Part shown: in pieces, positions 3,605 through 57,924 of the stretch
How positions within the stretch are numbered: position 1 is the stretch's first letter
Layout: each line of letters opens with the position of its first letter
From: Minisyncoccota bacterium
Lineage (GTDB): Bacteria > Patescibacteriota > Minisyncoccia > Phycocordibacterales > UBA9973
Length of the DNA: 64,000 nucleotides
Reading direction: 5' to 3'
NCBI GenBank assembly: GCA_041664285.1
Contig: JBAYLA010000001.1
Location: 68,889-132,888 of the forward strand
The notes under the pieces: generated by a model
What the model was told of the DNA's origin: nothing
Seen by the model: only the letters and a program-made list of their open reading frames with translations
Databases searched by the model: none
Program-made: the position numbers and the translations under genes

Positions 3605-4753
3605 ATGAATAAGAAAGTTTGGATTTTTCTAATAATTATATTGTTTGGGTTGTTTTTTTTATTTTTAGCCTTTCCGGGCTTTTTTGGTAATGCTGTTTCT
3701 TACCAAAGGGGTGATCAGGCAATAAATGCTGAAAAAAATGAAAACAAAAAAGGTGAATTAATTATTTTACCACTTGATACCATAGCTTATGATAAAAAAT
3801 TAAATGAAATAGCCAACAATCCTCCTGACCCCATTGTTTATAACACCATTAAAACTATTGAAAAAGACAAGAATGGTAAATCTATAACTAGAATTACTAA
3901 AGTTCCTCTTTCTCCGCAACCAATCAAAACACATCTTTGGCCCGTTAAAACTGTTTATCCGAACGACGGCGCTATTTTGCCGTTTTCTCGTATCATTGCT
4001 TATTATGGGAATTTATATTCGAAGAAAATGGGAGTACTAGGAGAGTATCCTGAAGCAGAAATGCTCCAAAAACTAGAAGCAGAGGTAAAAAAGTGGGAAG
4101 TGGCTGATCCAACAACTCCAGTTATTCCTGCTCTTCACTACATTGCTGTCGTGGCACAAGGTAGTGCTGGAATTGACGGCAAATATAGAGCCAGAATGCC
4201 TTCTTCTGAAATAGATAAAGTTTTAGCTATAGCTGCAAAAATAAACGCAATTGTCTTTTTGGATATACAGGTTGGTTTTTCTAATGTGCAGACAGAAGTT
4301 CCACTTTTGGCAAAATATCTTAAATTACCTAATGTGCATTTAGGTATTGATCCAGAATTTTCTATGAAGAGTGGCATTAGACCTGGTAAGGTTGTCGGCA
4401 CAGTAGACGCAACCGATATAAATTTTGCTTCTAATTATTTAGCCAATCTTGTGCGAGAAAATAATCTTTCTCCAAAAATTCTCATTATCCATCGCTATAC
4501 GCAAAAAATGGTTACAAATTATAAACAAATTAAAACATTACCAGAGGTGCAGATTATAATGCACATGGACGGATGGGGTGGAGAGGCAAAGAAAATTGGC
4601 ACTTATAGAAATTTTATTTATCCAGAGCCTGTACAGTTTACTGGTTTTAAATTGTTTTACAAGAATGATATTTTAACCAAAGGAACAACCTTAATGACTC
4701 CATCTAGCCTTTTAAAATTAAATCCAATACCGATATATATACAATATCAATAG
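3605..4753 (+). CDS. secreted hypothetical protein, possibly a TIM-barrel glycoside-hydrolase-like fold
   Basis: N-terminal TM/signal segment. No motif I can name with confidence. Ends with a TAG stop. Confidence 0.45.
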   Translation: MNKKVWIFLIIILFGLFFLFLAFPGFFGNAVSYQRGDQAINAEKNENKKGELIILPLDTIAYDKKLNEIANNPPDPIVYNTIKTIEKDKNGKSITRITKVPLSPQPIKTHLWPVKTVYPNDGAILPFSRIIAYYGNLYSKKMGVLGEYPEAEMLQKLEAEVKKWEVADPTTPVIPALHYIAVVAQGSAGIDGKYRARMPSSEIDKVLAIAAKINAIVFLDIQVGFSNVQTEVPLLAKYLKLPNVHLGIDPEFSMKSGIRPGKVVGTVDATDINFASNYLANLVRENNLSPKILIIHRYTQKMVTNYKQIKTLPEVQIIMHMDGWGGEAKKIGTYRNFIYPEPVQFTGFKLFYKNDILTKGTTLMTPSSLLKLNPIPIYIQYQ

Positions 4754-5817: not shown

Positions 5818-6380
5818 AAATAATTATGAGCACAGAATCAGTATATTATTTAAATATTTTTCTTGGAGGAGGGGCCATTGCTCTGCAGGTTTTTTCAGTT
5901 ATTGCTCTAATTTTGCTTTTTTTTAGACCCTCAGAAAATAGGAAAAATTTTTACCTAGATTTTATCAATAAACATTTTTTAATTTTGGTTTTTCTAATTT
6001 CGTTAATGGCTTCAATTTTTCCTCTAGTATATTCTGAAATTATTCGTTTTGTTCCGTGTTATTTATGTTGGTGGCAGAGAGTTTTTATGTTTCCTTTGGT
6101 GTTAATGTTTGGAGTAGCTCTCTGGGATAAAGATAGAAAAATTATTCGATACGCATTACCTCTAGTTTGTGTGGGTTTTCTTATTTCTCTTTATCAGAAT
6201 TTCTTTTATTATTTTGGAGAAAATTCAAATTTACCATGTGATGCGTCTGGAGTATCTTGTTATCAGCATTTAGTTTCTGTCTTTGGTGGGTATATATCAA
6301 TTCCAATGCTTGCATTGACCGCCTTCTTTGCTCTTTTAACTTTATTAGCTGTTGCTCATTTTTATAAAAAAGAGGTATAA
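5802..6380 (+). CDS. disulfide bond formation protein B-like (DsbB/BdbC family)
   Basis: Four TM helices. The first periplasmic loop carries the VPCYLCWWQR Cys pair and a later loop carries CDASGVSC. Confidence 0.6.
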   Translation: MYIALKIIMSTESVYYLNIFLGGGAIALQVFSVIALILLFFRPSENRKNFYLDFINKHFLILVFLISLMASIFPLVYSEIIRFVPCYLCWWQRVFMFPLVLMFGVALWDKDRKIIRYALPLVCVGFLISLYQNFFYYFGENSNLPCDASGVSCYQHLVSVFGGYISIPMLALTAFFALLTLLAVAHFYKKEV

Positions 6381-6580
6381 TTAGATTATTAATTTAACTA
6401 AGATAGCGTCGTGCTTTAGTGGACATTATGCGACGTGATTCTGCAAAATCATATGGGAAAAGGAAATAATTCATATCGAAAGGATGTAAAAAAACCCAAG
6501 AAAGCAAAAAAGAAATAATTGAGAAAGGTCGATTACTGTTTTTTAATTTTTTTAAATATCTCGCTTTTATTAATCGTTGC

Positions 6581-6859
6581 GTGATTTTATTTTATAAAAT
6601 AACTATGAATAAAAATAAAGTTGGTTTGATTGTGGGTTCTTTAATGGGCTTGTTTCATGCAGTTTGGGGATTGCTAGTTCTTCTTGGGTTAGCTCAATCA
6701 TTGTTGGATTTTGTTTTTAACTTACATTCATTAAATAGTCCATTTCTTGTGATGCCTTTTGATTTTGTTCGAACATTAGGCTTAATTGTGTTAACCTTTA
6801 TAGTAGGTTATGTTTTTGGTTTTATTTTTGCCCTAATTTGGAATAAATTTCATCAATAA
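6581..6859 (+). CDS. small hypothetical membrane protein
   Basis: 92 aa with 3 hydrophobic segments, followed by a terminator. Confidence 0.35.
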   Translation: MILFYKITMNKNKVGLIVGSLMGLFHAVWGLLVLLGLAQSLLDFVFNLHSLNSPFLVMPFDFVRTLGLIVLTFIVGYVFGFIFALIWNKFHQ

Positions 6860-6876
6860 ATTTTAAAATAAAGGCT

Positions 6877-6912
6877 CAAAAATCTCGAGTACAAGCTCGA
6901 GATTTTTATTTT
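6877..6912 (+). terminator. Rho-independent terminator
   Basis: aaaaatctcgag-tacaag-ctcgagattttta hairpin with a T-run. Confidence 0.6.
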
Positions 6913-6939
6913 ATAAGAAGATATTGTATAATAAAATAC

Positions 6940-7935
6940 ATGGATTTAGAAGGATTTGGAAAAACAACTAAAGAAAAAGTACATAGCACGCCAGAAAAAT
7001 TTAAAACCAAAGAGGGTGACATTACTTTAAAATGGAATATTTTTAAACCTGATAATTTTAAAAAAGGAGAAAACATAAAGCCTGACCGAGTAGTAATATT
7101 CTTGCCAGGAGTTGGTCTCGATTCTGATTCTTCTTCGGTGGTAGAGTCGGCTCAAGATTTTGCCAATGCATCAAAAACAATTTCTTATTCTATTTCTACT
7201 CGTACAGATAATCCTAAAATTGAAAATTCTCAAGCAGTTCAAGCAGAGGCAATTCGTCAATTTATGATTAGTCATAATTTGCAAGAAGTTACTCTGGTTG
7301 GTAATTCACAAGGCGCTAATAAGGCAATAGAACTAGCTGCTATTTTAGAGAAAGAAGAAGGTGGAGAAGCTAAGATTCAGGTTCGTGGGTTGATTTTGAC
7401 TAATCCTGCTGGTTTATATGAGCAAGATTCTAAAACAATGAAAACAAATTTTACTAAAGATGCCTTAATCAACACCCCTCAAAGTTGGCTAAAGAAGGGG
7501 GGTTCTCTTAGTGCTGTGGGTAGAACCATTCGCGTAGGGGCTGATATAGGTGTTTATATAGCAAAAGAAATAGTTACTGCTCCAGGTGAATTTACTGATA
7601 GGGCTAATAGAGAGGCAAAAGAAGCATCTATGCTTAATAACAATACCGCAGAAATTAAAGCACCAGTTGTTGTAGTTTTGGGTGCTGACGATCTTGTTTT
7701 TGATTCTAAAAAAATTATTCCTGATGATTCACATGGTCTTCATGAAGACCATGATAAAAGATTAGCTTTACAAAATAAAAGAAATGAAGCATTAAAAAAA
7801 ATATTTCCAAATAGTAGTAATATAAAAGTTTTAGAGGCTACTAAATCCTCCACTCATGGATTGCATTATGCCAGAAGTAGAACAGTGGCCAATGCAAGTA
7901 TTGAAATGTTAAAAAGAATGTCTGAGATTAAATAA
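6940..7935 (+). CDS. alpha/beta-hydrolase-like protein
   Basis: VTLVGNSQGANKAIE contains a GxSxG nucleophile elbow. Otherwise unassigned. Confidence 0.4.
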   Translation: MDLEGFGKTTKEKVHSTPEKFKTKEGDITLKWNIFKPDNFKKGENIKPDRVVIFLPGVGLDSDSSSVVESAQDFANASKTISYSISTRTDNPKIENSQAVQAEAIRQFMISHNLQEVTLVGNSQGANKAIELAAILEKEEGGEAKIQVRGLILTNPAGLYEQDSKTMKTNFTKDALINTPQSWLKKGGSLSAVGRTIRVGADIGVYIAKEIVTAPGEFTDRANREAKEASMLNNNTAEIKAPVVVVLGADDLVFDSKKIIPDDSHGLHEDHDKRLALQNKRNEALKKIFPNSSNIKVLEATKSSTHGLHYARSRTVANASIEMLKRMSEIK

Positions 7936-7959
7936 TAATTTAATAGAATTGAAACATAA

Positions 7960-8571
7960 ATGTTAGGGTTTACAAAAAAGGAATTGGTGTTAATGAAGAA
8001 ATTAAATACACCAGCCAAGGTGCAGGACTTTTTGAACAAACTTCAGTTCAATTTCGAAGAAAAAGGGGAAACATTGAAATCTCCGATTTTAGCTCTAAAG
8101 GCACGACAAGCCCATTGTTTTGAAGGAGCGCTTCTGGGGGCTTATATATTGTCTCTGCAAGGTTTTACCCCCTATTTGATGCATTTAAAGGCCACTAAAG
8201 AGGATTTTGACCATGTGGTCGCTCCTTTTAAAGTAGAGAAATATTGGGGTGCTTTATCTAAGACTAATCATGCGGTTTTGCGTTACCGTGAGCCTATTTA
8301 TAGAAATATTCGCGAACTTGCTATGTCTTATTTTCATGAATATTTTTTAAATAATGGGGAAAAAACATTGAGACAGTATTCTGCACTTCTTAATTTAAAT
8401 ACTTTGAAAAAAAATTGGGGCATATCACCAAAAGATCTTTGGTCTATAGATAAAAAATTAGATAAAATACAACATTATAATATCGTGCCACAATCTTATA
8501 TCAAGAAACTCCGAAAATCAGACAAGGTAGAAATAAAAGCAGGGGAGATTACAGAGTTTAAAAAATACTAA
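7960..8571 (+). CDS. hypothetical protein
   Basis: 203-aa ORF whose 3' end overlaps the convergent gene by 14 nt. Confidence 0.35.
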   Translation: MLGFTKKELVLMKKLNTPAKVQDFLNKLQFNFEEKGETLKSPILALKARQAHCFEGALLGAYILSLQGFTPYLMHLKATKEDFDHVVAPFKVEKYWGALSKTNHAVLRYREPIYRNIRELAMSYFHEYFLNNGEKTLRQYSALLNLNTLKKNWGISPKDLWSIDKKLDKIQHYNIVPQSYIKKLRKSDKVEIKAGEITEFKKY

Positions 8572-9376
8572 AAATTTTATCCCAAAATCTTCTCCACCAA
8601 GTATTTTTTGTAGTTTCATTTTGTGCGGGAACAGAAGGAACAGAATTTGCAATTGATGTAGTATTTTTGTCTTTAATTTTGTTTATTTTTTTAGGTTGCT
8701 CTTTAGGGTTTGCAGGCAAGATATCTCCCCCTTCTTCTTCAAAAGTTGTATTTGAAGAAGAAGGGGGAGTAAGTGTTGGATAAACAAGCAAAGGGGAAAG
8801 AATAAAAGAAGTACATGGTTGGCCAGTGGTTATGCTAAATTTTTGTCCTTGTTCGCAGATAGTATTTAATATTATATATCCGCTACCTCCACTATTACTG
8901 TGGGTAGAGGGGGTTTCTGGCTCTGGTTCTGGTATTTTGTTTTCATCTCCAAAATACAAAACAACATTTTCTCCTCCAGATAAAATTTCCGAATCCATTC
9001 CTACGCTTGGGCTAACATTATTTACTTTGTATTGCCAATTATCACACAAATCGGATCCAGAGACGTTGATACATTTCAAATAAAAAGCTCCAAACATATC
9101 ATAATAAATCAAATTAGAGATATTAAAATCTCCACTCAAAGTGTCGGCTGTATTTACTATCGAGAGCACACTGTCGGCCTTTGTATCGTGAGGACTTCCG
9201 CTTGAGTCATTTATACTGATGGTACCAGCTCCGAGCAAGGGTATATTTCCGGAATAAACAACATCACCGTTATTTTTTACAGTTAAATTTACATTTATTC
9301 CATCAGCTAGAGCAAACTCACTTCCTCCTGTTAGTAATATTAAAGCAATCCAAACACTCATTAAAATTTTTTTCAT
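8558..9376 (-). CDS. secreted DUF4430-like (transcobalamin / intrinsic-factor beta-domain-like) protein with Pro/Ser/Thr linker
   Basis: Signal peptide. NLTVKNNGDVVYSG ... DNWQYKVNNVSPSVGMDSEILSGGENVVLYFG matches the DUF4430 pattern (W.Y.VNG...G....l.dGD.v.f.y). The C-terminal half is PEPEPETPS-rich. Confidence 0.5.
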   Translation of the reverse strand: MKKILMSVWIALILLTGGSEFALADGINVNLTVKNNGDVVYSGNIPLLGAGTISINDSSGSPHDTKADSVLSIVNTADTLSGDFNISNLIYYDMFGAFYLKCINVSGSDLCDNWQYKVNNVSPSVGMDSEILSGGENVVLYFGDENKIPEPEPETPSTHSNSGGSGYIILNTICEQGQKFSITTGQPCTSFILSPLLVYPTLTPPSSSNTTFEEEGGDILPANPKEQPKKINKIKDKNTTSIANSVPSVPAQNETTKNTWWRRFWDKIFSIF

Positions 9377-9389
9377 ATTTTAATTTAAA

Positions 9390-9580
9390 AATAAAAAAAC
9401 TCCTACCGAGAGGAGTCGACAAATCAAGACATTAAGACTTGATAATTCCTGCTCGGGACAAATAAAATGATTGGTATTCGGACTTGTTCCTCCAATTTTA
9501 GTTGGAAGGACTTACCGTAGCGGCACTGTACTGGAATTCCTGCCTGCGTAGGCGGGTCACCAGTTTCCCCAATCAATTCT
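9390..9580 (-). ncRNA. candidate cobalamin riboswitch with intrinsic terminator (expression platform) leading into the 8558..9376 gene
   Basis: GC-rich island in an AT-rich intergenic region. The minus-strand RNA reads GGGGAAACUGGUGA...GGAAUUCCAG...GUGCCGCUACGGUAAGUCC...AAGUCCGAAUACC. The closest fit to the remembered consensus is CCGCUACUGUGAG plus the terminal AGUCAGGAAACCUGCC. It ends with the terminator GACUCCUCUCGGUAGGAGUUUUUUU about 15 nt before the ATG. Confidence 0.5.
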
Positions 9581-9592
9581 TATAATTTTCAA

Positions 9593-10084
9593 ATGAACTC
9601 TCTTAGTATATACTTACCTCATATTATGTCAAAGGAAGATGTGGATACTAAAAAAATAGCCAGAGAGAAGCTGGTAAAAATAATGGTTTTTGGAACTTTT
9701 GACGGATTGCATCCTGGGCATATTAATTTTTTCCAACAGGCAAAAAATCTTTCTAAAAGTTCATTTTTAATTGTTTCAATTGCTAGAGATAAAAATATAA
9801 TAAAAATTAAAGGGAAAAAATCAACACTTTCTGAAAACGAAAGATTTAATTTAGTAAAACAAAATAAGTTTATAGATAAGGTTGTTCTGGGAGGGAAGGT
9901 CAAATATTTACCCCATATTATAAAAGAAAAACCAGATATTATTGCCCTTGGTTATGATCAAAAAGATTATGTTGAAAATTTAAAAAAAGATCTTAAAAAA
10001 AATGATATTTTAATAAAAATTATACGTTTAAAGCCTTATAAGCAAAAAATTTTCAAAAATAGCTTACTAAAATCAAAAAAATAA
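9593..10084 (+). CDS. cytidylyltransferase-like nucleotidyltransferase (FAD synthetase N-domain / TagD-like)
   Basis: GTFDGLHPGHINFF is the (H/T)xGH nucleotidyltransferase motif. Confidence 0.6.
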   Translation: MNSLSIYLPHIMSKEDVDTKKIAREKLVKIMVFGTFDGLHPGHINFFQQAKNLSKSSFLIVSIARDKNIIKIKGKKSTLSENERFNLVKQNKFIDKVVLGGKVKYLPHIIKEKPDIIALGYDQKDYVENLKKDLKKNDILIKIIRLKPYKQKIFKNSLLKSKK

Positions 10085-10186
10085 CTTTTTAAGGGTTTAA
10101 TATAGGTAAAAAGTTGGAATTTAGATAATATACTCCATATTCCTTTACATTTTTAGGGTACTTGCTATACTAATTTAACTAAAAAA

Positions 10187-11620
10187 ATGGATAAAGTAAA
10201 AGTTAAAAAATCAAAAAAAATAAAAAATAAAAAAAGACCAAAGAAGAATTGGAAAAAGTTTTGGAAGTTAGGGATGGAAGAGTTTAATACCCAGTATTTT
10301 GACGTTAGCCAGAACGGTGATTTGGTGGTTAAAGAGGGATACTATCAATATAATATTATGGATATTATTAAAAAATACGGCACCGTAACCCGAGTGTTTT
10401 TTCCGTTTATTCTAGAGAACCGGGTGCGAGACTTGATAGAACTTTTTAACGCTTATATTAAAATTTTAAATTACCGTGGAAAATTTTATTATCACTATGT
10501 GATGAAATCCAACCAGAATAGTGATTTTGTTTTGCCGGCTATTGCGGAAGGAGCGCATATTGAAGTTTCCTCCGCCAACGAACTTTTTTTAGTAAAAAGG
10601 ATGCTGGAAAAAGATAAATTTAACCGTAAAATAAGGGTTACCTGCAACGGACCTAAAACTGAACAGTATATAAGTTTAATTGAAGAGCTTCGTGAAAAAG
10701 GTCTAATAGTTATACCCATTATAGAAAACGGAGAGGAACTGGAAAGGCTTAAGAAATTTAAAGGAGAAGTGGGAGTACGAGTAAATCTTAATCTTAAAGT
10801 TGATGCGCACTGGGACAAAAAATATAACCACTTTGGTTTTGCCGAGGAAGAGTTGATTAAAATCAGCAAAATCAGGAACCTTTCCATGCTGCATTATCAT
10901 ATTTCCACGCAAAATGAAAAAATAGAGGGATTTATAAAGCCTCTCAAGCGCGCGATTGATCTTTATGCCAAATTGAGACAGCACAATCCAAATCTGGACA
11001 CGATAAACTTCGGTGGCGGGATGGCTGTGCCTTATGAAAAAAGAAAAAAATTATTTTCCGTGAAAAATTTAGTTCAGCAAATGATTAAAACTGCCAAAAG
11101 AGAAAGCGACAAATTGGGAGTCCGGCATCCGAGTCTGGTTTGTGAATGGGGCAGTTATTTTACCGCTCCTTCTCAAATTACCATTTTTAAGATTTTAGCT
11201 GAGAAAAATATTTTCAAGAAACCTGACACTAAATGGTATTTTATTGACGGGTCTTTTATCGCGCATCTGACCGATACATGGTCTCCTGTTCACCACAAAT
11301 GGCATTTTGCGACAGCCAACCATTTAAATACCCGCCGACTTCAAAAAGTATGGCTTGCTGGGTCTACTTGTGACTCAGATGACCGCTATACCGCTTCCGG
11401 AACTTATGTGTTATTACCGAAATTCACCGAAGATGTTCCAGATTTGTATCTAGTAGTTTTTGACACAGGTTCTTATCAAGACACCTTTGAGAACAACCAC
11501 TGCTTGATTTCCAAGCCGGCGATGGTAATTTGTCAAAATGGACAAGTTAAACTGTCTCGCAAAAGACAAACACCGGAAGAAATCGGTAAACTCTTTGGCT
11601 GGAACGGAGATCATAAATAA
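10187..11620 (+). CDS. PLP-dependent fold-III (Orn/DAP/Arg) decarboxylase, probably arginine decarboxylase
   Basis: YHYVMKSNQN carries the PLP-lysine; GAHIEVSSANEL is also present. An agmatinase gene follows. The real start may be the internal Met (MEEFNTQYF). Confidence 0.55.
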   Translation: MDKVKVKKSKKIKNKKRPKKNWKKFWKLGMEEFNTQYFDVSQNGDLVVKEGYYQYNIMDIIKKYGTVTRVFFPFILENRVRDLIELFNAYIKILNYRGKFYYHYVMKSNQNSDFVLPAIAEGAHIEVSSANELFLVKRMLEKDKFNRKIRVTCNGPKTEQYISLIEELREKGLIVIPIIENGEELERLKKFKGEVGVRVNLNLKVDAHWDKKYNHFGFAEEELIKISKIRNLSMLHYHISTQNEKIEGFIKPLKRAIDLYAKLRQHNPNLDTINFGGGMAVPYEKRKKLFSVKNLVQQMIKTAKRESDKLGVRHPSLVCEWGSYFTAPSQITIFKILAEKNIFKKPDTKWYFIDGSFIAHLTDTWSPVHHKWHFATANHLNTRRLQKVWLAGSTCDSDDRYTASGTYVLLPKFTEDVPDLYLVVFDTGSYQDTFENNHCLISKPAMVICQNGQVKLSRKRQTPEEIGKLFGWNGDHK

Positions 11621-11631
11621 AATAAATTTTA

Positions 11632-12521
11632 TGGTAGATTCAATCATTAATACAAAGAAAATAAATGAAGCAGACGTTATATTGTTGTCTGCAGCTTATG
11701 ATAAAACTGCTTCTAGTCATAAGGGTACAGTCAATGGTCCGAAAGCTATAATAAAAATGCTTGATTCAAAACTTGAGCTTTTTGATCGTACTTATAAGTT
11801 GGAGCCTTGCAAAAAGATAAAAATTGGACAAAAAGATTTAGGCAATTTGAATTCACTTTCACCAGAGAAAACCTTTTTTAAAATTACAAATGAATGTGAA
11901 AAATTTTTAAATAATAATAAATTTGTTTTTTTGTTTGGTGGCGAACATTCAGTTTCGCTTGGACTTTTAAAGGCTCTGGTAAAAAAAGTAAACCCAAAAG
12001 ATGTGACTATTCTTCAAATAGATGCGCACTGTGATTTACGGAATGACGATTCTGATTACAATAATAAACCAACAAAATTTGCACATTCTTGTGTTATGCG
12101 TCGTGCCCACGAACTTGGCTACAATCTTATTCAAGTTGGTATTCGTACCTATTATAAAGATGAGTATAAATATTTTATTAATCCAAAAAATAATATAAAA
12201 GTTTTTGAATGGGGCAATGGTAAGAAAATTCCAATTATTAAGAAAATTTTAAAATCAATTAAAACAAAATATGTTTATATTACAATAGACGTAGATGGCT
12301 TTGATCCTGCTTGTATGCCTGGCACTGGTACACCAGTAGCGGGTGGGCTTGATTGGTGGTATGGCGTAGAGCTTATTAAGCAAGTTGTAAACAAAAAAGA
12401 ATTAATCGGAGCAGATATTGTAGAAGTTTCTCCTATGCGTGATTCAGTACTTACAGAATATAGTGCAGCTCAATTAACTTATACAATAATAGCGCATAAG
12501 TTTCAAAAAAAATTAAGATAA
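11632..12521 (+). CDS. speB: agmatinase (arginase/ureohydrolase family)
   Basis: GGEHSVSLG, IDAHCDLRND and ITIDVDGFDPACMPGTGTP are the Mn-binding motifs. Start moved to the ATG after the upstream stop; the ORF-table start at 11538 overlaps by 83 nt. Confidence 0.7.
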
Positions 12522-37437: not shown

Positions 37438-39045
37438 ATGTTGCCAAATCCTAAACTTTCACCTCTTCGTTTTGGTACTAGCGGTGTTCGCGCTCTAGTT
37501 ACCGATATGACTGACATGGAGTGTTATATTAATACTCGTGGTTTTATTCGGTATCTCTATACAATAAAAGAAATTAAACCTGGCGACAGTATTGTTTTGG
37601 GTGGAGATTTAAGGTCTAGCACTCCACGTATTATATCTGCTGTTCATAAAGCTATATTAGACGAAGAATGCCAGACTATTTACTGTGGCTTTGTGCCGAC
37701 TCCAACCTTAAGTTATTATGCTTGGAAAAGACACCTACCCGCAATAATGATTACTGGTAGTCATATTCCTGAAGATCGAAATGGGATAAAATTTATAAAA
37801 TCTAAAGAAGAAGTATTGAAAAATGACGAAAAAGACATACTTTTTCAAGTTGCTATAGTTCGCAAAGAAGAGAATTTAAGAAATGAAAATGAATCCTTGT
37901 TTGATATTGATGGATTTTTTAAACAATCAATTAATTTACCATCCGAATCAGAAGAACAAAATGTTTTATCAGAATTTAAAAAACGTTACACCGATATTTT
38001 CCCCCCTAATACATTAACCGGTAAAAAGATTGTTCTCTATGAACAATCTGCCGTTGGGCGGGATGTTTTCAAAAGTATTCTAACTTCTCTTGGTGCCGAA
38101 GTCATTTCTTTTGGAAGAAGTGATAAATTTATTCCCATAGATACGGAAGAAATGTCGAATGCCGTAATTAGTTCATTAAAACAATTAGCTCAAGAATTTA
38201 AACCATTCGCTATTGTTTCTACTGATGGTGATTCTGATCGTCCTATTCTTACTGACGAAAATGGCTCTTTTCTTTCAGGAGAACGTCTCTGTGCCCTTGT
38301 GTCTCTCTATCTTAAGCCTGATTTTGCTTCAATGACGGCTACTTGTGGCGATGATAAAACCTTAATTACTCTTTTAAAAAAATCAAACATTGAAGTTGTT
38401 TTGACAAAGATTGGTTCTCCTTATGTTATTTTTGCAATGAATGAAAAACTAGCAAAAAATTCAAATACCAAAGTTGTATCTTGGGAAAGAAACGGAGGTT
38501 ATCTTACGGGAAGTAATTTTACTATAAATAATAAAATACTAGATGCGCTTCCTACTCGTGATTCAATTTTACCTCTTTTAATTGCTTTAGTTTTCGCCAA
38601 AGAAGAAGGTGTTCCTCTTTCCGTCTTAATTAACAAAAAACTTTCTAATCGTTTTTCTAGTTCTAGCTCTGTCAATAATAAAACTAAAGGCTGTGAACCT
38701 TACACAGTTGAGCTTGGTAAAAAAATTATTAGTTCTTTTTCACTAAAGGATCCTAATATAGAAGAATTTGATTTTAGTTTTAAAAATATAAACCAGGAAG
38801 CAAAGAATATTAAATCAAAATTAGAACCATACTTTAATCCTACTTTCTATGGTTCAATTATCTCGCTGGGCTACCTTGATGGTGTTCGTATTTCTTTTTC
38901 AAATGGTGATGTTGTGCATTTTCGCCCCTCTAGTAATGCTCCAGAATTTAGATTTTACATTACCTCTGATACCAAAGAACGGGCAGATAAAATTCTTGCT
39001 GACTGTTTTGTTATTATTCCCAAAATGATTGCTGATATTAACTAG
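37438..39045 (+). CDS. alpha-D-phosphohexomutase (phosphoglucomutase/phosphomannomutase family)
   Basis: ITGSHIPEDRNGIKF is the active-site Ser loop (TASHNP-type), plus VSTDGDSDRP (the Mg-binding DGDGDR loop). Confidence 0.75.
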   Translation: MLPNPKLSPLRFGTSGVRALVTDMTDMECYINTRGFIRYLYTIKEIKPGDSIVLGGDLRSSTPRIISAVHKAILDEECQTIYCGFVPTPTLSYYAWKRHLPAIMITGSHIPEDRNGIKFIKSKEEVLKNDEKDILFQVAIVRKEENLRNENESLFDIDGFFKQSINLPSESEEQNVLSEFKKRYTDIFPPNTLTGKKIVLYEQSAVGRDVFKSILTSLGAEVISFGRSDKFIPIDTEEMSNAVISSLKQLAQEFKPFAIVSTDGDSDRPILTDENGSFLSGERLCALVSLYLKPDFASMTATCGDDKTLITLLKKSNIEVVLTKIGSPYVIFAMNEKLAKNSNTKVVSWERNGGYLTGSNFTINNKILDALPTRDSILPLLIALVFAKEEGVPLSVLINKKLSNRFSSSSSVNNKTKGCEPYTVELGKKIISSFSLKDPNIEEFDFSFKNINQEAKNIKSKLEPYFNPTFYGSIISLGYLDGVRISFSNGDVVHFRPSSNAPEFRFYITSDTKERADKILADCFVIIPKMIADIN

Positions 39046-39080: not shown

Positions 39081-40295
39081 ATGGTCGCGCTTAAATTTGC
39101 CCGCCGTGGCGGGAAGAAAAAAGTAATAAAGAAAGTTAAAGCTGTTAAAAAAACAGTAGTAAAAAAAATAGTTAAAAAAGCTACAAAGAAAGTAGTAAAA
39201 AAAGTTGCGAAGAAAAAAGTTGTAAAAAAAATCCCATACCCGATTAAAAAATTTAAGGGTAATCCAATTGCTGGTCCAGTTCCTAATTCATTTTGGCAAT
39301 CAGAAGCGGTATTTAATCCAGGGGCGGTAGTGCACGATGGACGTATACATCTTTTTTATAGAGCGCTTGGAGGTGATGGTCTGTCGCGTATTGGTTATAC
39401 TTCAAGCAAAGATGGTATTCATTTTGATGAAAGACTTTCTTATCCAGTTTTTGTGGCAGAAAATATAAACGAAGCACAAGACCATTATCCATATACTTCT
39501 CCAGCTCGTCTTGTTTATAATCCTGTACTTTACGCTTCTGGTGGTGGGTGGGGTGGATGCGAAGATCCACGAGCAGTAAAAATTGATGGCCGAATATATC
39601 TTACCTTCAATATGTTTAATGGGTGGGAATCTATGCGAGTAGCTTTTACTTCAATTGACGGGAAAGATCTATTGGAAAAAAAATGGAACTGGAGTCAATT
39701 TGCTTATTTGTCTCGTCCTGGTGATAGGCAAAAAAATTGGGTTTTATTTCCAGAAAAATTTAATGGTAAGTTTGCGCTTTTTCATAATCTGGATCTGGGA
39801 GATTCTTCTCGAGTGCACATTAAGTATTTGGATGAGCTTAATATGTACAAAACACCAACAAGACAAACAGGAGCACCAGACGTACAGATTTTACCAGATC
39901 ACGTAGTTGCTTGGCATAATCGTACTCGTAGTGCCTCAGCGCCACCAATAAAAACTAAAGATGGCTGGCTTTTATTTTATCATGCGATGGATAAGGATGA
40001 CCCAAATCGTTACAAGGTTGGAGCACTTTTACTTGATCTTAAAGATCCAACAAAAATTCTTTATCGAGCTTCTCGTCCGATTTTAGAACCAGATGAGTGG
40101 TATGAAAATGATTATAAACCAGGAGTGGTGTATGCTAGTGGTGCGGTCGTGAAAGACGGAACATTGTTTCTTTATTATGGCGGGGGAGACAAACATATCG
40201 CTGTAGCATATGTTAATTTAAAAGAATTTCTTAATAAATTAAAGAGTGGTGGAAATGCGGTTTTTTCAAAGAAAAAGGCTGCTTTGAAAATATAA
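39081..40295 (+). CDS. GH130 family glycoside phosphorylase / DUF377 (beta-1,4-mannoside phosphorylase-like) with Lys/Val-rich N-terminal tail
   Basis: FNPGAVVHDGRIHLFYRALG, GCEDPR, APPIKTKDGWLLFYHA and YYGGGD. The first 55 aa are a KKVxKKV repeat. Confidence 0.7.
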   Translation: MVALKFARRGGKKKVIKKVKAVKKTVVKKIVKKATKKVVKKVAKKKVVKKIPYPIKKFKGNPIAGPVPNSFWQSEAVFNPGAVVHDGRIHLFYRALGGDGLSRIGYTSSKDGIHFDERLSYPVFVAENINEAQDHYPYTSPARLVYNPVLYASGGGWGGCEDPRAVKIDGRIYLTFNMFNGWESMRVAFTSIDGKDLLEKKWNWSQFAYLSRPGDRQKNWVLFPEKFNGKFALFHNLDLGDSSRVHIKYLDELNMYKTPTRQTGAPDVQILPDHVVAWHNRTRSASAPPIKTKDGWLLFYHAMDKDDPNRYKVGALLLDLKDPTKILYRASRPILEPDEWYENDYKPGVVYASGAVVKDGTLFLYYGGGDKHIAVAYVNLKEFLNKLKSGGNAVFSKKKAALKI

Positions 40296-40299
40296 TTTT

Positions 40300-41262
40300 A
40301 TGTACGTAGTAAAAAGATCTCATCGCAATCCAATTTTTGTTCCATATAAAGACCATTACTGGGAGGATTTTGCCACTTTTAATATGAGTGTCATTAAAAA
40401 AGGTAAAATGTTATATGGCGCATATCGTGCTATTGGCGCATCCGATATATTACGTACACCACAGCAGATTTCCGTTATAGGTTTGGCGAAGAAAGGTGAA
40501 GGTCATAACTATTTTAAAAATGCTGTGCCTTTTATCGTCCCAGAAGAAGAATGGGAAAAATACGGATGTGAAGATCCTAGGATTACTTTTTTTGAAGGTA
40601 ATTATTATATATTTTATACTGCACTTTCAAAATATCCATTTGAAGCTAGTGGAATTAAGGTTGCCGTAGCAATTTCAAAAGATTTTAAAAATATTAATGA
40701 ACGTCATTTAATAACACCTTTCAATGCTAAGGCAATGACACTTTTTCCTGAGCGTATTAATGGAAAAATTACAGTAATCGTGACTGTAAATACAGATATG
40801 CCTCCGTCGAAAATTGCCGTAGCACAAGTTGATAAGATAGAATAGTTATGGAATCAAAAATTTTGGGAAAAATGGTATGCAAAAATAGACGAGCACGCTG
40901 TCGATTTTAAAAGATTTCCATCTGACCATGCTGAAATTGGTGCTCAACCTCTTAAAACTCGCTATGGTTGGCTTCTTCTTTACTCCCATATCCAAAATTA
41001 TTTCTCTGGAGGGAATAATTCTAATCGTATATTTGGGATTGAAGCAGTTCTACTTGATTTAAATAATCCACTTAAAATTATCGGTCGGACGAGCGGTCCT
41101 ATTTTAGTACCTCGAGAGTCATATGAACTTTTAGGCCATGTTCCTAATATAGTTTTTCCTTCAGGCGCAATTTTAGAAAAAGATACACTTTTTATATATT
41201 ATGGAGCAGCAGATACTACGACCTGTTTGGCTCATGTAAATTTAACTGATCTTATAGGAACG
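40300..41262 (+). pseudogene. GH130 paralog 2, interrupted by an in-frame TAG at 40843-40845 and lacking its own stop
   Basis: The N-half is HRNPIFVP...GCEDPRITFFEGNYYIFYTA. After the TAG the same frame continues with WYAKIDEH...PLKTRYGWLLLYSH...IFIYYGAADTT, the C-half of the same domain. It then runs directly into the third GH130 copy. Confidence 0.55.
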
Positions 41263-42255
41263 ATGAGACCAGAAACAAGTGCCCGATGGCATTTTAATCG
41301 TTCTTTAAAGAATCCAATTATTTTACCAGACAAAACTCATCCGTGGGAAGCTAAAGCTACTTTTAATCCAGCAGCCTTGAGGATAGGAGAAACAATCCAT
41401 ATATTATATCGAGCACTTTCGGAAGATAATACATCTACTCTTGGCTATGCATCAACTAAAGATGGTTTTACTATTGACGAAAGAAGTTCTTCGCCTATTT
41501 ATGTTCCAAGAGAAGATTTTGAGTTAAAAAAAATTGCCAATGGAAATTCGGGTTGTGAAGATCCGCGATTAACGAAAATAGGGAGTACCATTTATATGTG
41601 CTACACGGCCTTTGATGGTATTGGTCCGCCACGAGTTGCTGTTACTTCTATCACAGAGAAAAATTTCTTATCAAAAAATTGGCAGTGGGAAAAACCGGTG
41701 ATCATAACGCCAGCTGGCTTTGATGATAAAGATACTTGTATTTTTTCCGAAAAAACCAATGGAAAATATTTTATTTTGCACAGAGTAGGTAATGAAATTT
41801 GTGGAGATTACATAAAAACACTTAATTTTAAAACCGAAACCATCCGAAAGTGTATTAGAATTATAGGACCTAGAATAAATAAATGGGATAATGCAAAAGT
41901 TGGGATTTCTGCGCCACCCATAAAAACAAAATATGGATGGTTGCTTCTTTATCATGGTATTTCAAAAAGTAGTAATACTTATCGTCTCGGAGCTGTCTTG
42001 CTTGATCTTAATGATCCATCTACTGTTCTTTCCCGTACTTCTGATCCCATATTTGAACCAGAAGAATCATATGAAAAAATTGGAATAATTAATAATGTTG
42101 TTTTTCCGTGCGGAATGGTTGTTAAACCTGCCAGCCGTGGTGGGGACGATTTGCTTTATATATATTATGGTGGAGCGGATACTGTTGTTGGAGTTGCGAC
42201 CATAGAACTTGATATTCTACTTCGAGCTCTTACTCGAGATATTAAGAAAACATAA
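41263..42255 (+). CDS. GH130 family glycoside phosphorylase, paralog 3 (start set at ATG 41263)
   Basis: FNPAALRIGETIHILYRALS, GCEDPR, APPIKTKYGWLLLYHG and YYGGADT. The ORF-table start at 41227 is a TTG inside the preceding domain's C-terminus. Confidence 0.65.
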   Translation: MRPETSARWHFNRSLKNPIILPDKTHPWEAKATFNPAALRIGETIHILYRALSEDNTSTLGYASTKDGFTIDERSSSPIYVPREDFELKKIANGNSGCEDPRLTKIGSTIYMCYTAFDGIGPPRVAVTSITEKNFLSKNWQWEKPVIITPAGFDDKDTCIFSEKTNGKYFILHRVGNEICGDYIKTLNFKTETIRKCIRIIGPRINKWDNAKVGISAPPIKTKYGWLLLYHGISKSSNTYRLGAVLLDLNDPSTVLSRTSDPIFEPEESYEKIGIINNVVFPCGMVVKPASRGGDDLLYIYYGGADTVVGVATIELDILLRALTRDIKKT

Positions 42256-42319
42256 TCATTACAAGACTGCGATTTTAACAGCTTTTGCTAAGCTAAAAAA
42301 TCGGGAGTATAATAAACGT

Positions 42320-42718
42320 ATGCAAATAAAATTACAAGGAAAGGGTATTGAATTGACGGAATCTATTAAAGATTATGTTTTAAAAAGAGTTACAAACTTA
42401 GAAAAATTACTTTCCAAGCTTGAGAGAGAGAAAGGTGAAGCTAGAGTTTCATTTGAAATTTCAAAAATTACCAATCATCATAAAGCAGGTCAGATTTTTC
42501 ATGCTGATTGTTCTATTAATATAGACGGAAAGAAGTTTTATGGGAGTAGTGATCACGAAGATTTATATGGCGCAATAGATGAAGTAAAAGAAATTCTTTT
42601 TAATGATATTCAAAAAAATAAAGATCGTGCCCAGGCACTTTTTAAACGTGGTGCTATGAGTGTTAAGAAAATGCTTAAAGGCCTTTCTAAAAGAAATCCT
42701 TTTACTTCGAAGTATTAG
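42320..42718 (+). CDS. hpf: ribosome hibernation promoting factor (HPF/RaiA)
   Basis: MQIKLQGKGIELTESIKDYVLKRVTNLEKLL is the HPF N-terminus. Start is at the internal ATG right after a tataat box. Confidence 0.7.
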   Translation: MQIKLQGKGIELTESIKDYVLKRVTNLEKLLSKLEREKGEARVSFEISKITNHHKAGQIFHADCSINIDGKKFYGSSDHEDLYGAIDEVKEILFNDIQKNKDRAQALFKRGAMSVKKMLKGLSKRNPFTSKY

Positions 42719-44430: not shown

Positions 44431-44973
44431 CTAATTTTTTACAGGTGGTAACTCCTCCTTTATCTCCTTAGCGTGATCAATAAAAAGTATGCCATTTAAG
44501 TGGTCAGTTTCGTGTTGAAAAATTTGGGCTAGGAGTCCTGAAGCGCCACGGATAAACTTTTTACCTTTTTCATCATAAGCTGTAATTGTTGCTTTTTTTG
44601 ATCTAAAAGTATTACCATAAAGCCACCTCACCGAAAGGCATCCTTCTGGTACCCACTCTTTTTCACGAGAAAGTTTTGAAATTTTTGGATTGATAAAAAC
44701 TAAGTCTTTTGGAACTTCTTTTTTTGGAATTTTATCAAATTCTTTTCCTCCTCTGACAAAATCTTTATGAAAAATCTTTCCAGAAACGACAAAAATAGGC
44801 AAAGAATATCCAATTTGTGGAGCTGCTATTGCTACTCCGTCTTCTTGACCTCTTAAGGCAAGCGACATTTCTTTCAAGACCCTTCTTATTTTAGGAGTGG
44901 TAATTTCTTTTATTGGTATTTCTTTTGCAATTTGACGTAAAACCTTATCATTTTTTTGAACTATTTCTTTCAT
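44431..44973 (-). CDS. def: peptide deformylase
   Basis: GVAIAAPQIG, EGCLSV and HETDHLNG are PDF motifs 1-3. Confidence 0.85.
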   Translation of the reverse strand: MKEIVQKNDKVLRQIAKEIPIKEITTPKIRRVLKEMSLALRGQEDGVAIAAPQIGYSLPIFVVSGKIFHKDFVRGGKEFDKIPKKEVPKDLVFINPKISKLSREKEWVPEGCLSVRWLYGNTFRSKKATITAYDEKGKKFIRGASGLLAQIFQHETDHLNGILFIDHAKEIKEELPPVKN

Positions 44974-52250: not shown

Positions 52251-52381
52251 AATTTACTCAAGAATATTTAAATTATTATAAGTAAATTTTTTATGTTAAA
52301 ATAAATTTATTACTTGTCCCGTTAGAAATTCAACAAAAGGGACATAAAAATAGAAAATTATTAATTAAAATTTTTAATGGG

Positions 52382-52858
52382 ATGAAAATATATATTGGCA
52401 CAGATCACGCAGGGTATGTTTTAAAACAAGCACTTGTTGCTTATTTAAAAGGGCAAGGATATGAAGTTATAGACAAAGGTGCTTTTGAATATAATGAAGA
52501 TGATGATTATCCAGATTTTGTTGCTCCAGTAGCGCGAGAGATTTCTAAAGATCCGGACAATTCGAAAGGTATTATTCTTGGTGGTACTGGTCAAGGAGAA
52601 GCAATTACGGCTAATAGATTTCCACATGTTCGAGCTATTGTTTATTACGGTAGAGTGAAACCAGTAGTAGAAAATGAGTCAGGTATTTTAATTAGATCTA
52701 GAGAGCATAATAATGCTAATATTATTTCTTTGGGGGCTAGATACTTTACAGAAGAAAGCATGATAGAAGTAGTTAATTTTTGGCTGAAAGCTCCGTATAG
52801 TGGAGACGAAAGACATGTGCGTCGTTTAGCAAAAATAGATGCTCTTAAAATAGACTAA
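52382..52858 (+). CDS. rpiB: ribose-5-phosphate isomerase B
   Basis: MKIYIGTDHAGYVLKQAL is the RpiB/LacAB family N-terminus. Confidence 0.8.
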   Translation: MKIYIGTDHAGYVLKQALVAYLKGQGYEVIDKGAFEYNEDDDYPDFVAPVAREISKDPDNSKGIILGGTGQGEAITANRFPHVRAIVYYGRVKPVVENESGILIRSREHNNANIISLGARYFTEESMIEVVNFWLKAPYSGDERHVRRLAKIDALKID

Positions 52859-56472: not shown

Positions 56473-57924
56473 ATGTCTAAAAAATTAATTTTAGTTCTGG
56501 GATTAGTTTTTTTCTTTTTAGGGGCTAATTTGGCAAAAGCGGATGTAATTATAAATGAAATTCAAATAAATCCCACCGAAGGAAGATTTATAGAACTTTA
56601 TAATGGAAATAGCTCAGAAGTTGATTTAACTGATTGGTATATTCAAAGAAAAACCGCGACTGGAAGTGATTTTGGGTCTTTAGTTTCCAAAACATATTTT
56701 GAGAATAAGACGATTGAGGCTGGTGGTTATTTTTTAATTTCCAAAAATACAATAGAAAATGCTGATATTGTTCTAGGTAGTTTAACTCTTACAGAATCAA
56801 ATACAATTCAATTAAAAAATGGAAACCAAGAAGTAGTAGATAAAGTTGGTTGGGGAAGCGGGGAATCTTCTGTGGGTGATAATCCTGCTGAAGGACAAAG
56901 TATCCAAAAAACTGAAAGTGGTTCCTGGATATCTTCGATTCCGACACCCGGAACAGCAAATGAAACAAATGCAATTCCTTCACCAACATCTTCCACTGAC
57001 GCTAACAGTGTCAGTTCTCTTACTAGTAGCACTAGTTCTTCTAGTAGTATTTCTTCATCTAGTACAAATACTACAGAAATAAAAACAAAAGCAATTGAAA
57101 ATCCTACTATGAAAGTAAAAATTTTAACGGGCACTCTAGCTTTTACGGGGCAACCTTTTGAAATACAAACTAGTGTTACAGGTTTTTTAAATGAAAAAGT
57201 TGTTCTAGGTAAAGCTTATTGGAATTTTGGTGACGGTAGTTCCTTTGAACAAATAAATAATTTTGAAAAGTTTTCCCATATTTATTATTATCCAGGTGAA
57301 TATATTCTCTTTTTAGAATATTATCGAAATAATTTTTCAAAAGTTCCAGAAGCGACAACCAAAACAACAATTAAAGTTTTACCCACGACTGTTTCTATTT
57401 CTAAGGTTGGAGATGCAAAAGATTTTTTTATTGAACTTTCGAATAATGCTAGTTCAGATATGGATATTTCTAATTGGGTTATTAAAGCAAGCGGAAAAGT
57501 TTTTATTTTACCTAAAAATAGTATCATTATGTCTAAAAAACAAATGACTATTTCTAGTAAAATAACAGGTTTTTCCTATGGTGATCAATTTAACTTGAAG
57601 CTTTATTCAGGAACAGATGAATTGATTTTTGATTATTCATCTTCTCTTGTTTTAGCAAAAACACATAGAATGGCTTCATCGACTCTTTCTTCGATTCCTC
57701 CCATTGATGAGGGAGAGACGCCAAAGGTAGAAAGGCTATTTTCTGATGTTACGCAAGCTTCAGCTATTTCTAGCGGAGTAATGGATAGTAATATAAATAA
57801 TTCATATTTACCTATATTGGGATCAATTATTTTTATTGGAGCTTCGGCTTCCGCCGTTTATTTTATTCGTCGAAAAAAAATTTCAAGAGAAGAAGCGAAT
57901 GACTTTGAAATTTTAGACGAATAA
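56473..57924 (+). CDS. surface protein with lamin-tail domains (LTD) and C-terminal TM anchor
   Basis: Signal peptide. VIINEIQINPTEGRFIELYNGNSSEVDLTDWYI is the LTD pattern, with a second LTD-like segment at FFIELSNNASSDMDISNWVI. A Ser/Thr linker is followed by a C-terminal TM and RRKK tail. Confidence 0.55.
   Translation: MSKKLILVLGLVFFFLGANLAKADVIINEIQINPTEGRFIELYNGNSSEVDLTDWYIQRKTATGSDFGSLVSKTYFENKTIEAGGYFLISKNTIENADIVLGSLTLTESNTIQLKNGNQEVVDKVGWGSGESSVGDNPAEGQSIQKTESGSWISSIPTPGTANETNAIPSPTSSTDANSVSSLTSSTSSSSSISSSSTNTTEIKTKAIENPTMKVKILTGTLAFTGQPFEIQTSVTGFLNEKVVLGKAYWNFGDGSSFEQINNFEKFSHIYYYPGEYILFLEYYRNNFSKVPEATTKTTIKVLPTTVSISKVGDAKDFFIELSNNASSDMDISNWVIKASGKVFILPKNSIIMSKKQMTISSKITGFSYGDQFNLKLYSGTDELIFDYSSSLVLAKTHRMASSTLSSIPPIDEGETPKVERLFSDVTQASAISSGVMDSNINNSYLPILGSIIFIGASASAVYFIRRKKISREEANDFEILDE

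Follow-up and report, generated by a model that had tools for sequence, protein, structure and literature searches.

An in-frame TAG in a conserved two-domain GH130 gene of a Patescibacteria genome is a one-base difference from an intact copy

What does a single stop codon mean when it stands in the middle of a reading frame that is open on both sides? This question is raised by a gene at 40300..42255 on the forward (+) strand of a 64,000-nucleotide stretch of DNA (hereafter, the window) from a Minisyncoccota bacterium, corresponding to positions 68,889 to 132,888 of contig JBAYLA010000001.1 in assembly GCA_041664285.1. The gene belongs to the GH130 glycoside phosphorylase family, joins two GH130 domains in one frame and would encode 651 amino acids (aa) when intact; here one TAG, at 40843-40845, interrupts it. 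A first-pass annotation, made from the letters alone, had left the choice between a recent nonsense mutation in a two-domain fusion, a sequencing or assembly error, and low-level read-through. We find that the TAG is private to this assembly and is a one-base change, G to T at position 40843, which turns the GAG codon of Glu182 into a stop.

The evidence for this comes from a second assembly. The top database match of the read-through product (P0001) is the same 651-aa protein, except that it has Glu at position 182, and it is encoded on a 134,628-bp contig deposited in ENA (ERZ27249449:k141_1450224). We compared the DNA of the window with this contig (L001, L003, L005 and L166) and with two Logan contigs from SRR6484324 (L002 and L004). 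The spans compared were 6351-8346 and 9509-52255, to which L166 adds 52256-52718. The sequences were equal at 44,742 of 44,743 bases, and the sole mismatch was base 40843, which is G there and T here. The Logan contigs equal the window at 6351-8346 and 9509-12220; among the Logan contigs returned for SRR6484324 none gave a further assembly across 40843, and an exact-pattern scan of metagenome contigs around the site, with G or T allowed, produced 0 matches. For the parts of the window outside the DNA comparison we looked up ten proteins, and for eight of them NCBI, JGI and ENA all contain an identical sequence. The other two were not found as exact sequences, probably through the choice of start codon.

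Where does the stop fall in the protein? Translation of frame 1 from 40300 to 42255 gives 652 codons, with the TAG as the sole internal stop and a terminal TAA at 42253-55, as the first-pass annotation had read it. The TAG closes a 5' fragment open reading frame (ORF) of 181 aa (40300..40845, +), which covers approximately the first half of GH130 domain 1 and includes the CEDPR motif with the proton-donor Asp. The rest of domain 1 occupies 40846..41262 (+), where the first in-frame start is a TTG at 41227, and domain 2 is complete, with 330 aa counted from the ATG at 41263 (41263..42255, +). Using the Pfam profile PF04041, for which the cut-off is 26 bits, we obtained a match to positions 33-176 of the hidden Markov model (HMM) on 40300-40842 (E 9e-15, 54.8 bits), a match to HMM positions 217-314 on 40846-41262 (E 5e-23, 82 bits) and a complete second domain on 41263-42252 (E 5e-54, 183.9 bits). 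Since the profile matches as two halves flanking the TAG, one GH130 domain is cut mid-way. Directly upstream, and ending 4 bases before the fusion gene, lies a paralog with a single GH130 domain (39081..40295, +; 404 aa; 129 bits with the same profile), whose N-terminal tail is rich in Lys. When the read-through version of domain 1 was aligned with this paralog (39081-40292) by BLASTP, the alignment spanned the stop position (27% identity, E 2e-30). Moreover, Leu183, the residue that follows the TAG, is identical in all three paralogous GH130 domains of the window, which places the stop within a conserved mid-domain motif. The earlier claim that the TAG sits inside a conserved domain is therefore borne out by both the profile and the alignment.

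The same annotation had pointed to the missing terminator between the two GH130 copies. The fact itself holds, as the translation has no stop codon in frame 1 between domain 1 and domain 2. As an oddity it does not hold, since the fusion frame is just as uninterrupted in 158 of the 160 related loci that we kept; the other two end at contig edges. The GH130-GH130 fusion is the normal, conserved state across the Paceibacteria/Nomurabacteria-type Patescibacteria. A database search with the read-through product returned 6166 matches, and the best 120 of these, from which the residue statistics below were taken, are proteins of 615-665 aa from metagenome-assembled genomes (MAGs) of Patescibacteria, Paceibacterota and Nomurabacteria, with 96-100% query coverage and 75-100% identity. 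The whole 651-aa product is spanned by over 100 proteins of 640-665 aa from Patescibacteria, and as over 100 database proteins match it from end to end (100% coverage) at 75-89% identity, the signal lies far beyond chance. Loci were collected by scanning one genome per GTDB species and the JGI metagenome contigs, followed by confirmation with tblastn. This gave 283 confirmed loci with the two-domain fusion in GTDB species representatives and 425 in metagenome contigs; the closest relatives in the protein-based scans had 89% identity among genome contigs and 83% among metagenome contigs. The junction between the domains (…DL(I/V)(G/S)T(M/I)…) is never a stop among the related loci, and the only locus of the 160 with any stop (L045) has it near the C-terminus.

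What do the relatives carry at position 182 itself? Among the 120 homologous proteins the residue is Glu in 88 and Asp in 27, with Gln, Ser, Asn and Thr once each. Among the 158 full-length loci aligned by tblastn it is Glu in 100, Asp in 39, Gln in 15, Lys in 2, and Asn and Ser in one each, and the 69 GTDB loci in which we located the motif have the codons GAA, GAT, CAA, GAG, AAT, AAA, GAC and CAG. A stop at this position was found in none of the approximately 280 relatives examined as proteins, GTDB loci or tblastn loci. The comparison of orthologous loci that had been proposed at the outset thus returned an uninterrupted two-domain frame, and a premature stop whose intact form is present in close relatives, here P0001 and 158 of 160 loci, is what characterizes a nonsense allele.

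The T at 40843 is also on public record. The exact 181-aa product (P0127) is in JGI/IMG, on a 203,274-bp MAG contig of Candidatus Paceibacterota. The same contig carries the 330-aa product (P0129), which is MFA6353439.1 in NCBI, named 'MAG: glycosidase [Candidatus Paceibacterota bacterium]', and is present in IMG as well; its neighbours on this contig are MFA6353437.1 (WCW93_00680) and MFA6353438.1 (WCW93_00685). The window evidently derives from this contig. As these products of the TAG version are already in IMG and NCBI, the TAG is not peculiar to this copy of the sequence, and we rejected the idea of an artificially introduced T. IMG calls the 181-aa and the 330-aa products as separate genes; NCBI keeps the 330-aa 'glycosidase' alone. 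Between WCW93_00685 (MFA6353438) and WCW93_00755 (MFA6353451) there are 13 protein accessions for 14 locus-tag steps, and no tRNA lies between them. The simplest reading is that the extra locus tag belongs to the 5' fragment, which the NCBI pipeline would have tagged as a pseudogene. By dropping the 5' half, the public MAG annotation under-describes a gene that is normally 651 aa long and has two domains.

How, then, would the TAG be read by the cell? Reassignment of TAG to an amino acid, through an alternative code or as pyrrolysine, is effectively refuted. TAG-to-Gln recoding is known in some phages, and Gln does occupy this position in 15 of the 158 related loci. However, of the window's 58 ORFs that reach 150 aa or more, 44 end in TAA, 12 in TAG and 2 in TGA, and, as one of the TAG ends is that of the 181-aa fragment, TAG terminates 11 other long ORFs. 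Three of these ends, at 4753, 33751 and 39045, had been named by the first-pass annotation as genuine stops; we checked them directly, and they coincide with standard-code public gene calls. In addition, the public table-11 calls cover the region gene after gene in the normal way, with Pfam domains of full length, and the codon is GAG in the other assembly of this genome. In our view it is very unlikely that the TAG is real and yet partly decoded, whether by a near-cognate tRNA or by a suppressor tRNA encoded elsewhere in the genome, with some full-length enzyme as the result. Bacteria in general do read through UAG at a low level by near-cognate decoding, and the frame downstream of the TAG is open and undecayed, but such a frame is equally explained by a very recent lesion. 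The stop is conserved in none of the relatives and so cannot be a programmed site, and the 11 ORFs that end in TAG speak against read-through as they do against reassignment. The base after the stop is T, which is a strong termination context in E. coli. The first-pass annotation had proposed a search for suppressor tRNA genes: the 64-kb window holds none, its three tRNAs being Gln-CTG, Ala-TGC and Asn-GTT, and none has a CUA anticodon. Rfam found only these tRNAs and a distant cobalamin riboswitch in the window, with no structured element near 40843. The likeness to systems of programmed read-through or reassignment is therefore superficial. It consists of an in-frame TAG in a conserved domain followed by an open frame, whereas here the stop is not conserved, TAG terminates elsewhere, the window encodes no suppressor tRNA and an identical genome has a sense codon. 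Recoding or programmed read-through is unsupported, the low-level read-through suggested earlier finds no support in these comparisons, and it would be a mistake to cite the TAG at 40843 as a case of recoded stop codons in Patescibacteria.

An ordinary one-base lesion without recoding is very probably the explanation when a real allele and a consensus error are taken together, and the earlier pairing of a nonsense mutation with a sequencing or assembly error stands as a pair, given the conserved fusion and the GAG in a base-identical assembly. Taken alone, the proposal that the TAG is a genuine, very young nonsense allele in the sampled population, read by the release factor as an ordinary stop, has about an even chance of being correct. 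A contig of 203 kb implies reasonable coverage, at which a random consensus error would be less likely; consensus mistakes should be rare at the coverage that such a contig normally needs. Furthermore, assemblies that differ usually mean that both alleles are present in the reads or that the samples are different. As no other difference separates the TAG version from the intact allele, the lesion would be very recent, or not real. The latter is the position of a consensus error in sequencing or assembly, under which the organism would carry GAG and an unbroken gene, and the T would be confined to this assembly. We consider this a substantial possibility, although one that falls short of even. 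It is favoured by the G, encoding a conserved Glu, in the other assembly of a base-identical genome, and by 40843 being the sole difference in 44,743 compared bases. The first-pass annotation had held that reads with a sense codon at 40843 would reduce the matter to a simple error, and a sense codon is found there in other data, as GAG in an assembly, at the level of assemblies and not of reads. Several considerations weigh against a genuine allele. Both assemblies were compared as consensus sequences, which keeps a consensus error a real prospect, and the ENA assembly may or may not come from the same sample as that of the window. A G-to-T change is also of a type known to arise as an artefact, classically from oxidative damage while libraries are prepared. 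Finally, selection should act against a nonsense allele here, since 158 of 160 relatives have the gene intact and all have a sense codon at this position, which favours an error or a transient allele. The kind of change does not help to choose: of the possible single substitutions in the ORF 4.8% are nonsense, and of the G>T/C>A changes 10.8%, so that a nonsense outcome is unremarkable under both the allele and the error.

If the TAG is a young nonsense allele, the course of events would be short. The ancestral GAG (Glu182) would have become TAG by the one G to T change at 40843, and the release factor would read it as an ordinary stop. The product would be a 181-aa fragment without the C-terminal half of domain 1, including its YYGAAD motif, and we infer that it is inactive. 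With efficient termination at the TAG, residues 183-321 would not be made, because there is no in-frame start before the TTG at 41227 or the ATG at 41263. Domain 2, which is intact, may still be translated from the ATG at 41263, in line with its annotation in NCBI and IMG, and the loss may then be only partial.

One may go further and suppose that the conserved GH130-GH130 fusion is undergoing natural fission. The T allele would be real, the 5' domain, with its diverged phosphate site, would be lost, and domain 2 would be expressed alone from the ATG at 41263, possibly helped by a new -10-like TAGAAT; or else low-level read-through would keep some full-length enzyme. We regard this scenario as improbable. 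A promoter-like sequence is present at 40814-40843 (+), consisting of TTGCCG, 18 nucleotides and TAGAAT, with the T at 40843 as its last base. With G at 40843 the hexamer is TAGAAG and fails the scan rule. The match is probably a chance occurrence in AT-rich DNA, as the region has 33 such matches against 22 expected.

A young nonsense allele of the ordinary kind has familiar counterparts in nonsense pseudogenes and in strain-level loss-of-function single-nucleotide variants. It shares with them one in-frame stop in a conserved ORF, an intact allele in a near-identical genome, and a gene that annotation pipelines split or drop. There is no distinctive difference; in the present case the gene is without secondary decay. 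The finding is an ordinary one-base nonsense difference, whether allele or error, in a known type of gene. Tandem GH130 fusions are likewise on record. According to Li et al. 2020 (PMC7660257), 6 of 1592 GH130 entries in CAZy are multi-modular, and GH130-GH130 combinations are among them. The modular proteins in that survey are rare, whereas a large clade of Patescibacteria has the fusion as a rule. We found no paper on GH130 in Patescibacteria in the literature.

Which enzyme does the intact gene resemble? The best sequence matches of both fusion domains are GH130 beta-1,2-mannoside phosphorylases (PDB 9fj8, 7fip and Lin0857, 5b0p). The closest solved chains for both are 9fj8, a 1,2-beta-oligomannan phosphorylase, and 7fip, a beta-1,2-mannobiose phosphorylase; among chains of this type domain 2 reaches E 1.7e-56 (with 9fj8) and domain 1 E 2e-38. 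The fold of the family is a five-bladed beta-propeller, and in sequence the likeness to its solved members is strong. In UhgbMP the proton donor is D104, and R168 and H231 bind phosphate, while in beta-1,2 enzymes Y103 is replaced by Glu and R150 by Lys (PMC7660257). Three basic residues bind phosphate and are absent from hydrolases, and the Lys is the determinant of beta-1,2 specificity (PMC4599007). We located the corresponding residues by alignment only. The CEDPR motif with the proton-donor Asp is kept in domain 1, in domain 2 and in the upstream paralog; in both fusion domains it is invariant across the 120 homologs, and its correspondence to D104 was assigned through the alignment to PDB homologs. 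The Glu next to the proton-donor Asp and the beta-1,2 Lys are also kept in all three GH130 domains of the locus.

The phosphate site is where the three domains differ. Domain 2 has the full signature (EDPR, Lys477, His494-Arg495, His552 and YYGGAD), and in the alignment His494-Arg495 and His552, the latter in a 'YH' pair, are conserved in 119-120 of the 120 homologs. In domain 1 the phosphate-binding His-Arg site is replaced, by alignment, by the invariant Asn164-Thr165-Asp166, opposite the His-Arg-Arg of 9fj8, and the second His stands in 'YSH'; Val-Asn-Thr-Asp and 'YSH' are found in 115-120 of the 120 homologs. The upstream paralog reads FHNL at the site, with the His and without the Arg, and has 'YH' for the second His. 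In these alignments the phosphate-binding His-Arg (LHRVG) is confined to domain 2. Compared with the beta-1,2-mannoside phosphorylases, which have His-Arg-Arg, fusion domain 1 has Asn-Thr-Asp, with 'YSH' for 'YH', and the upstream paralog has His-Asn. The characterised enzymes also have one domain each, whereas this locus encodes a fused pair and, directly upstream, a third domain in a gene of its own. These residues suggest that the fused pair combines one canonical phosphorylase with one diverged domain, which may be hydrolase-like or non-catalytic. A single full phosphorylase signature among three domains, as predicted from the sequence, could interest those who work on carbohydrate metabolism in the Candidate Phyla Radiation (CPR).

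The surroundings of the fusion gene are conserved in part. A single-domain GH130 gene lies directly 5' of it in 106 of 127 related loci, and the arrangement of a GH130-GH130 fusion, usually after a third GH130 gene, is widespread and strongly conserved in Paceibacteria/Nomurabacteria-type genomes. In the window, residues 1-55 of the upstream GH130 (39081-39245) form an N-terminal tail that is of low complexity and rich in Lys (…GGKKKVIKKVKAVKKTVVKKIVKKATKKVVKKVAKKKVVKK…). The tail is kept in the relatives P0122 and P0124 and is unusual for a cytoplasmic glycoside phosphorylase. Further upstream and in the same direction is a gene of the phosphoglucomutase/phosphomannomutase family (37438..39045, +; PF02878/PF02879). 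It is possible that its product acts as a sink for mannose-1-phosphate made by the GH130 phosphorylases. The linkage is not conserved, as only 5 of 115 related loci have a phosphomannomutase-family gene upstream of the fusion, and for this reason we set aside the logic of a phosphomannomutase-GH130 operon. Downstream, an ORF from the TTG at 42209 (42209-42718, +) overlaps the end of the GH130 gene. Public calls start this gene at the ATG at 42320, giving a 132-aa ribosome hibernation factor (PF02482), with a promoter-like site at 42285-42313 ahead of this ATG. In 70 of 144 related loci a gene of the same family stands just downstream of the fusion gene.

The tandem arrangement also affects how such loci are scanned. 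Our first tblastn tally gave stops in 64 related loci, which proved to be an artefact of choosing the longest high-scoring segment pair (HSP) and disappeared when the best-scoring HSP was used. The longest HSP was a domain-shifted alignment that ran from the upstream paralog over its stop into domain 1. Domain-shifted tblastn alignments with an apparent 'stop' are therefore a trap for automated pseudogene detection. In 64 of the 160 related loci (for example L008, L013, L017 and L087) the upstream GH130 is in frame with the fusion gene, and the two are separated only by a stop codon and one or two codons, as in L008 ('…KNKKIKA*VFMYVVKRSHH…').

Some of the related loci carry unexpected taxonomic labels. 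A two-domain gene at 66% identity (L077, JAMPXW010000003.1) is labelled 'MAG: Burkholderiales bacterium', probably through binning contamination or mislabelling. Several third-party annotation (TPA) MAGs with the fusion gene (L016, L018, L025 and others) are labelled 'uncultured Candidatus Saccharibacteria', and their closest relatives are Nomurabacteria or Paceibacterota.

Elsewhere in the window, the cobalamin riboswitch (RF00174) lies at 9452-9618 on the reverse (-) strand, scores 36.2 bits against a gathering score of 31.5 (E 1.5e-05) and is directly upstream of a minus-strand ORF of 272 aa (8558-9376). On the forward strand, the window encodes a 644-aa protein with an ice-binding domain (PF11999; 26318-28252, +) and one of 483 aa, 'lamin tail domain-containing' in NCBI (56473-57924, +), both of which are likely to be surface or secreted proteins of this small-genome bacterium.

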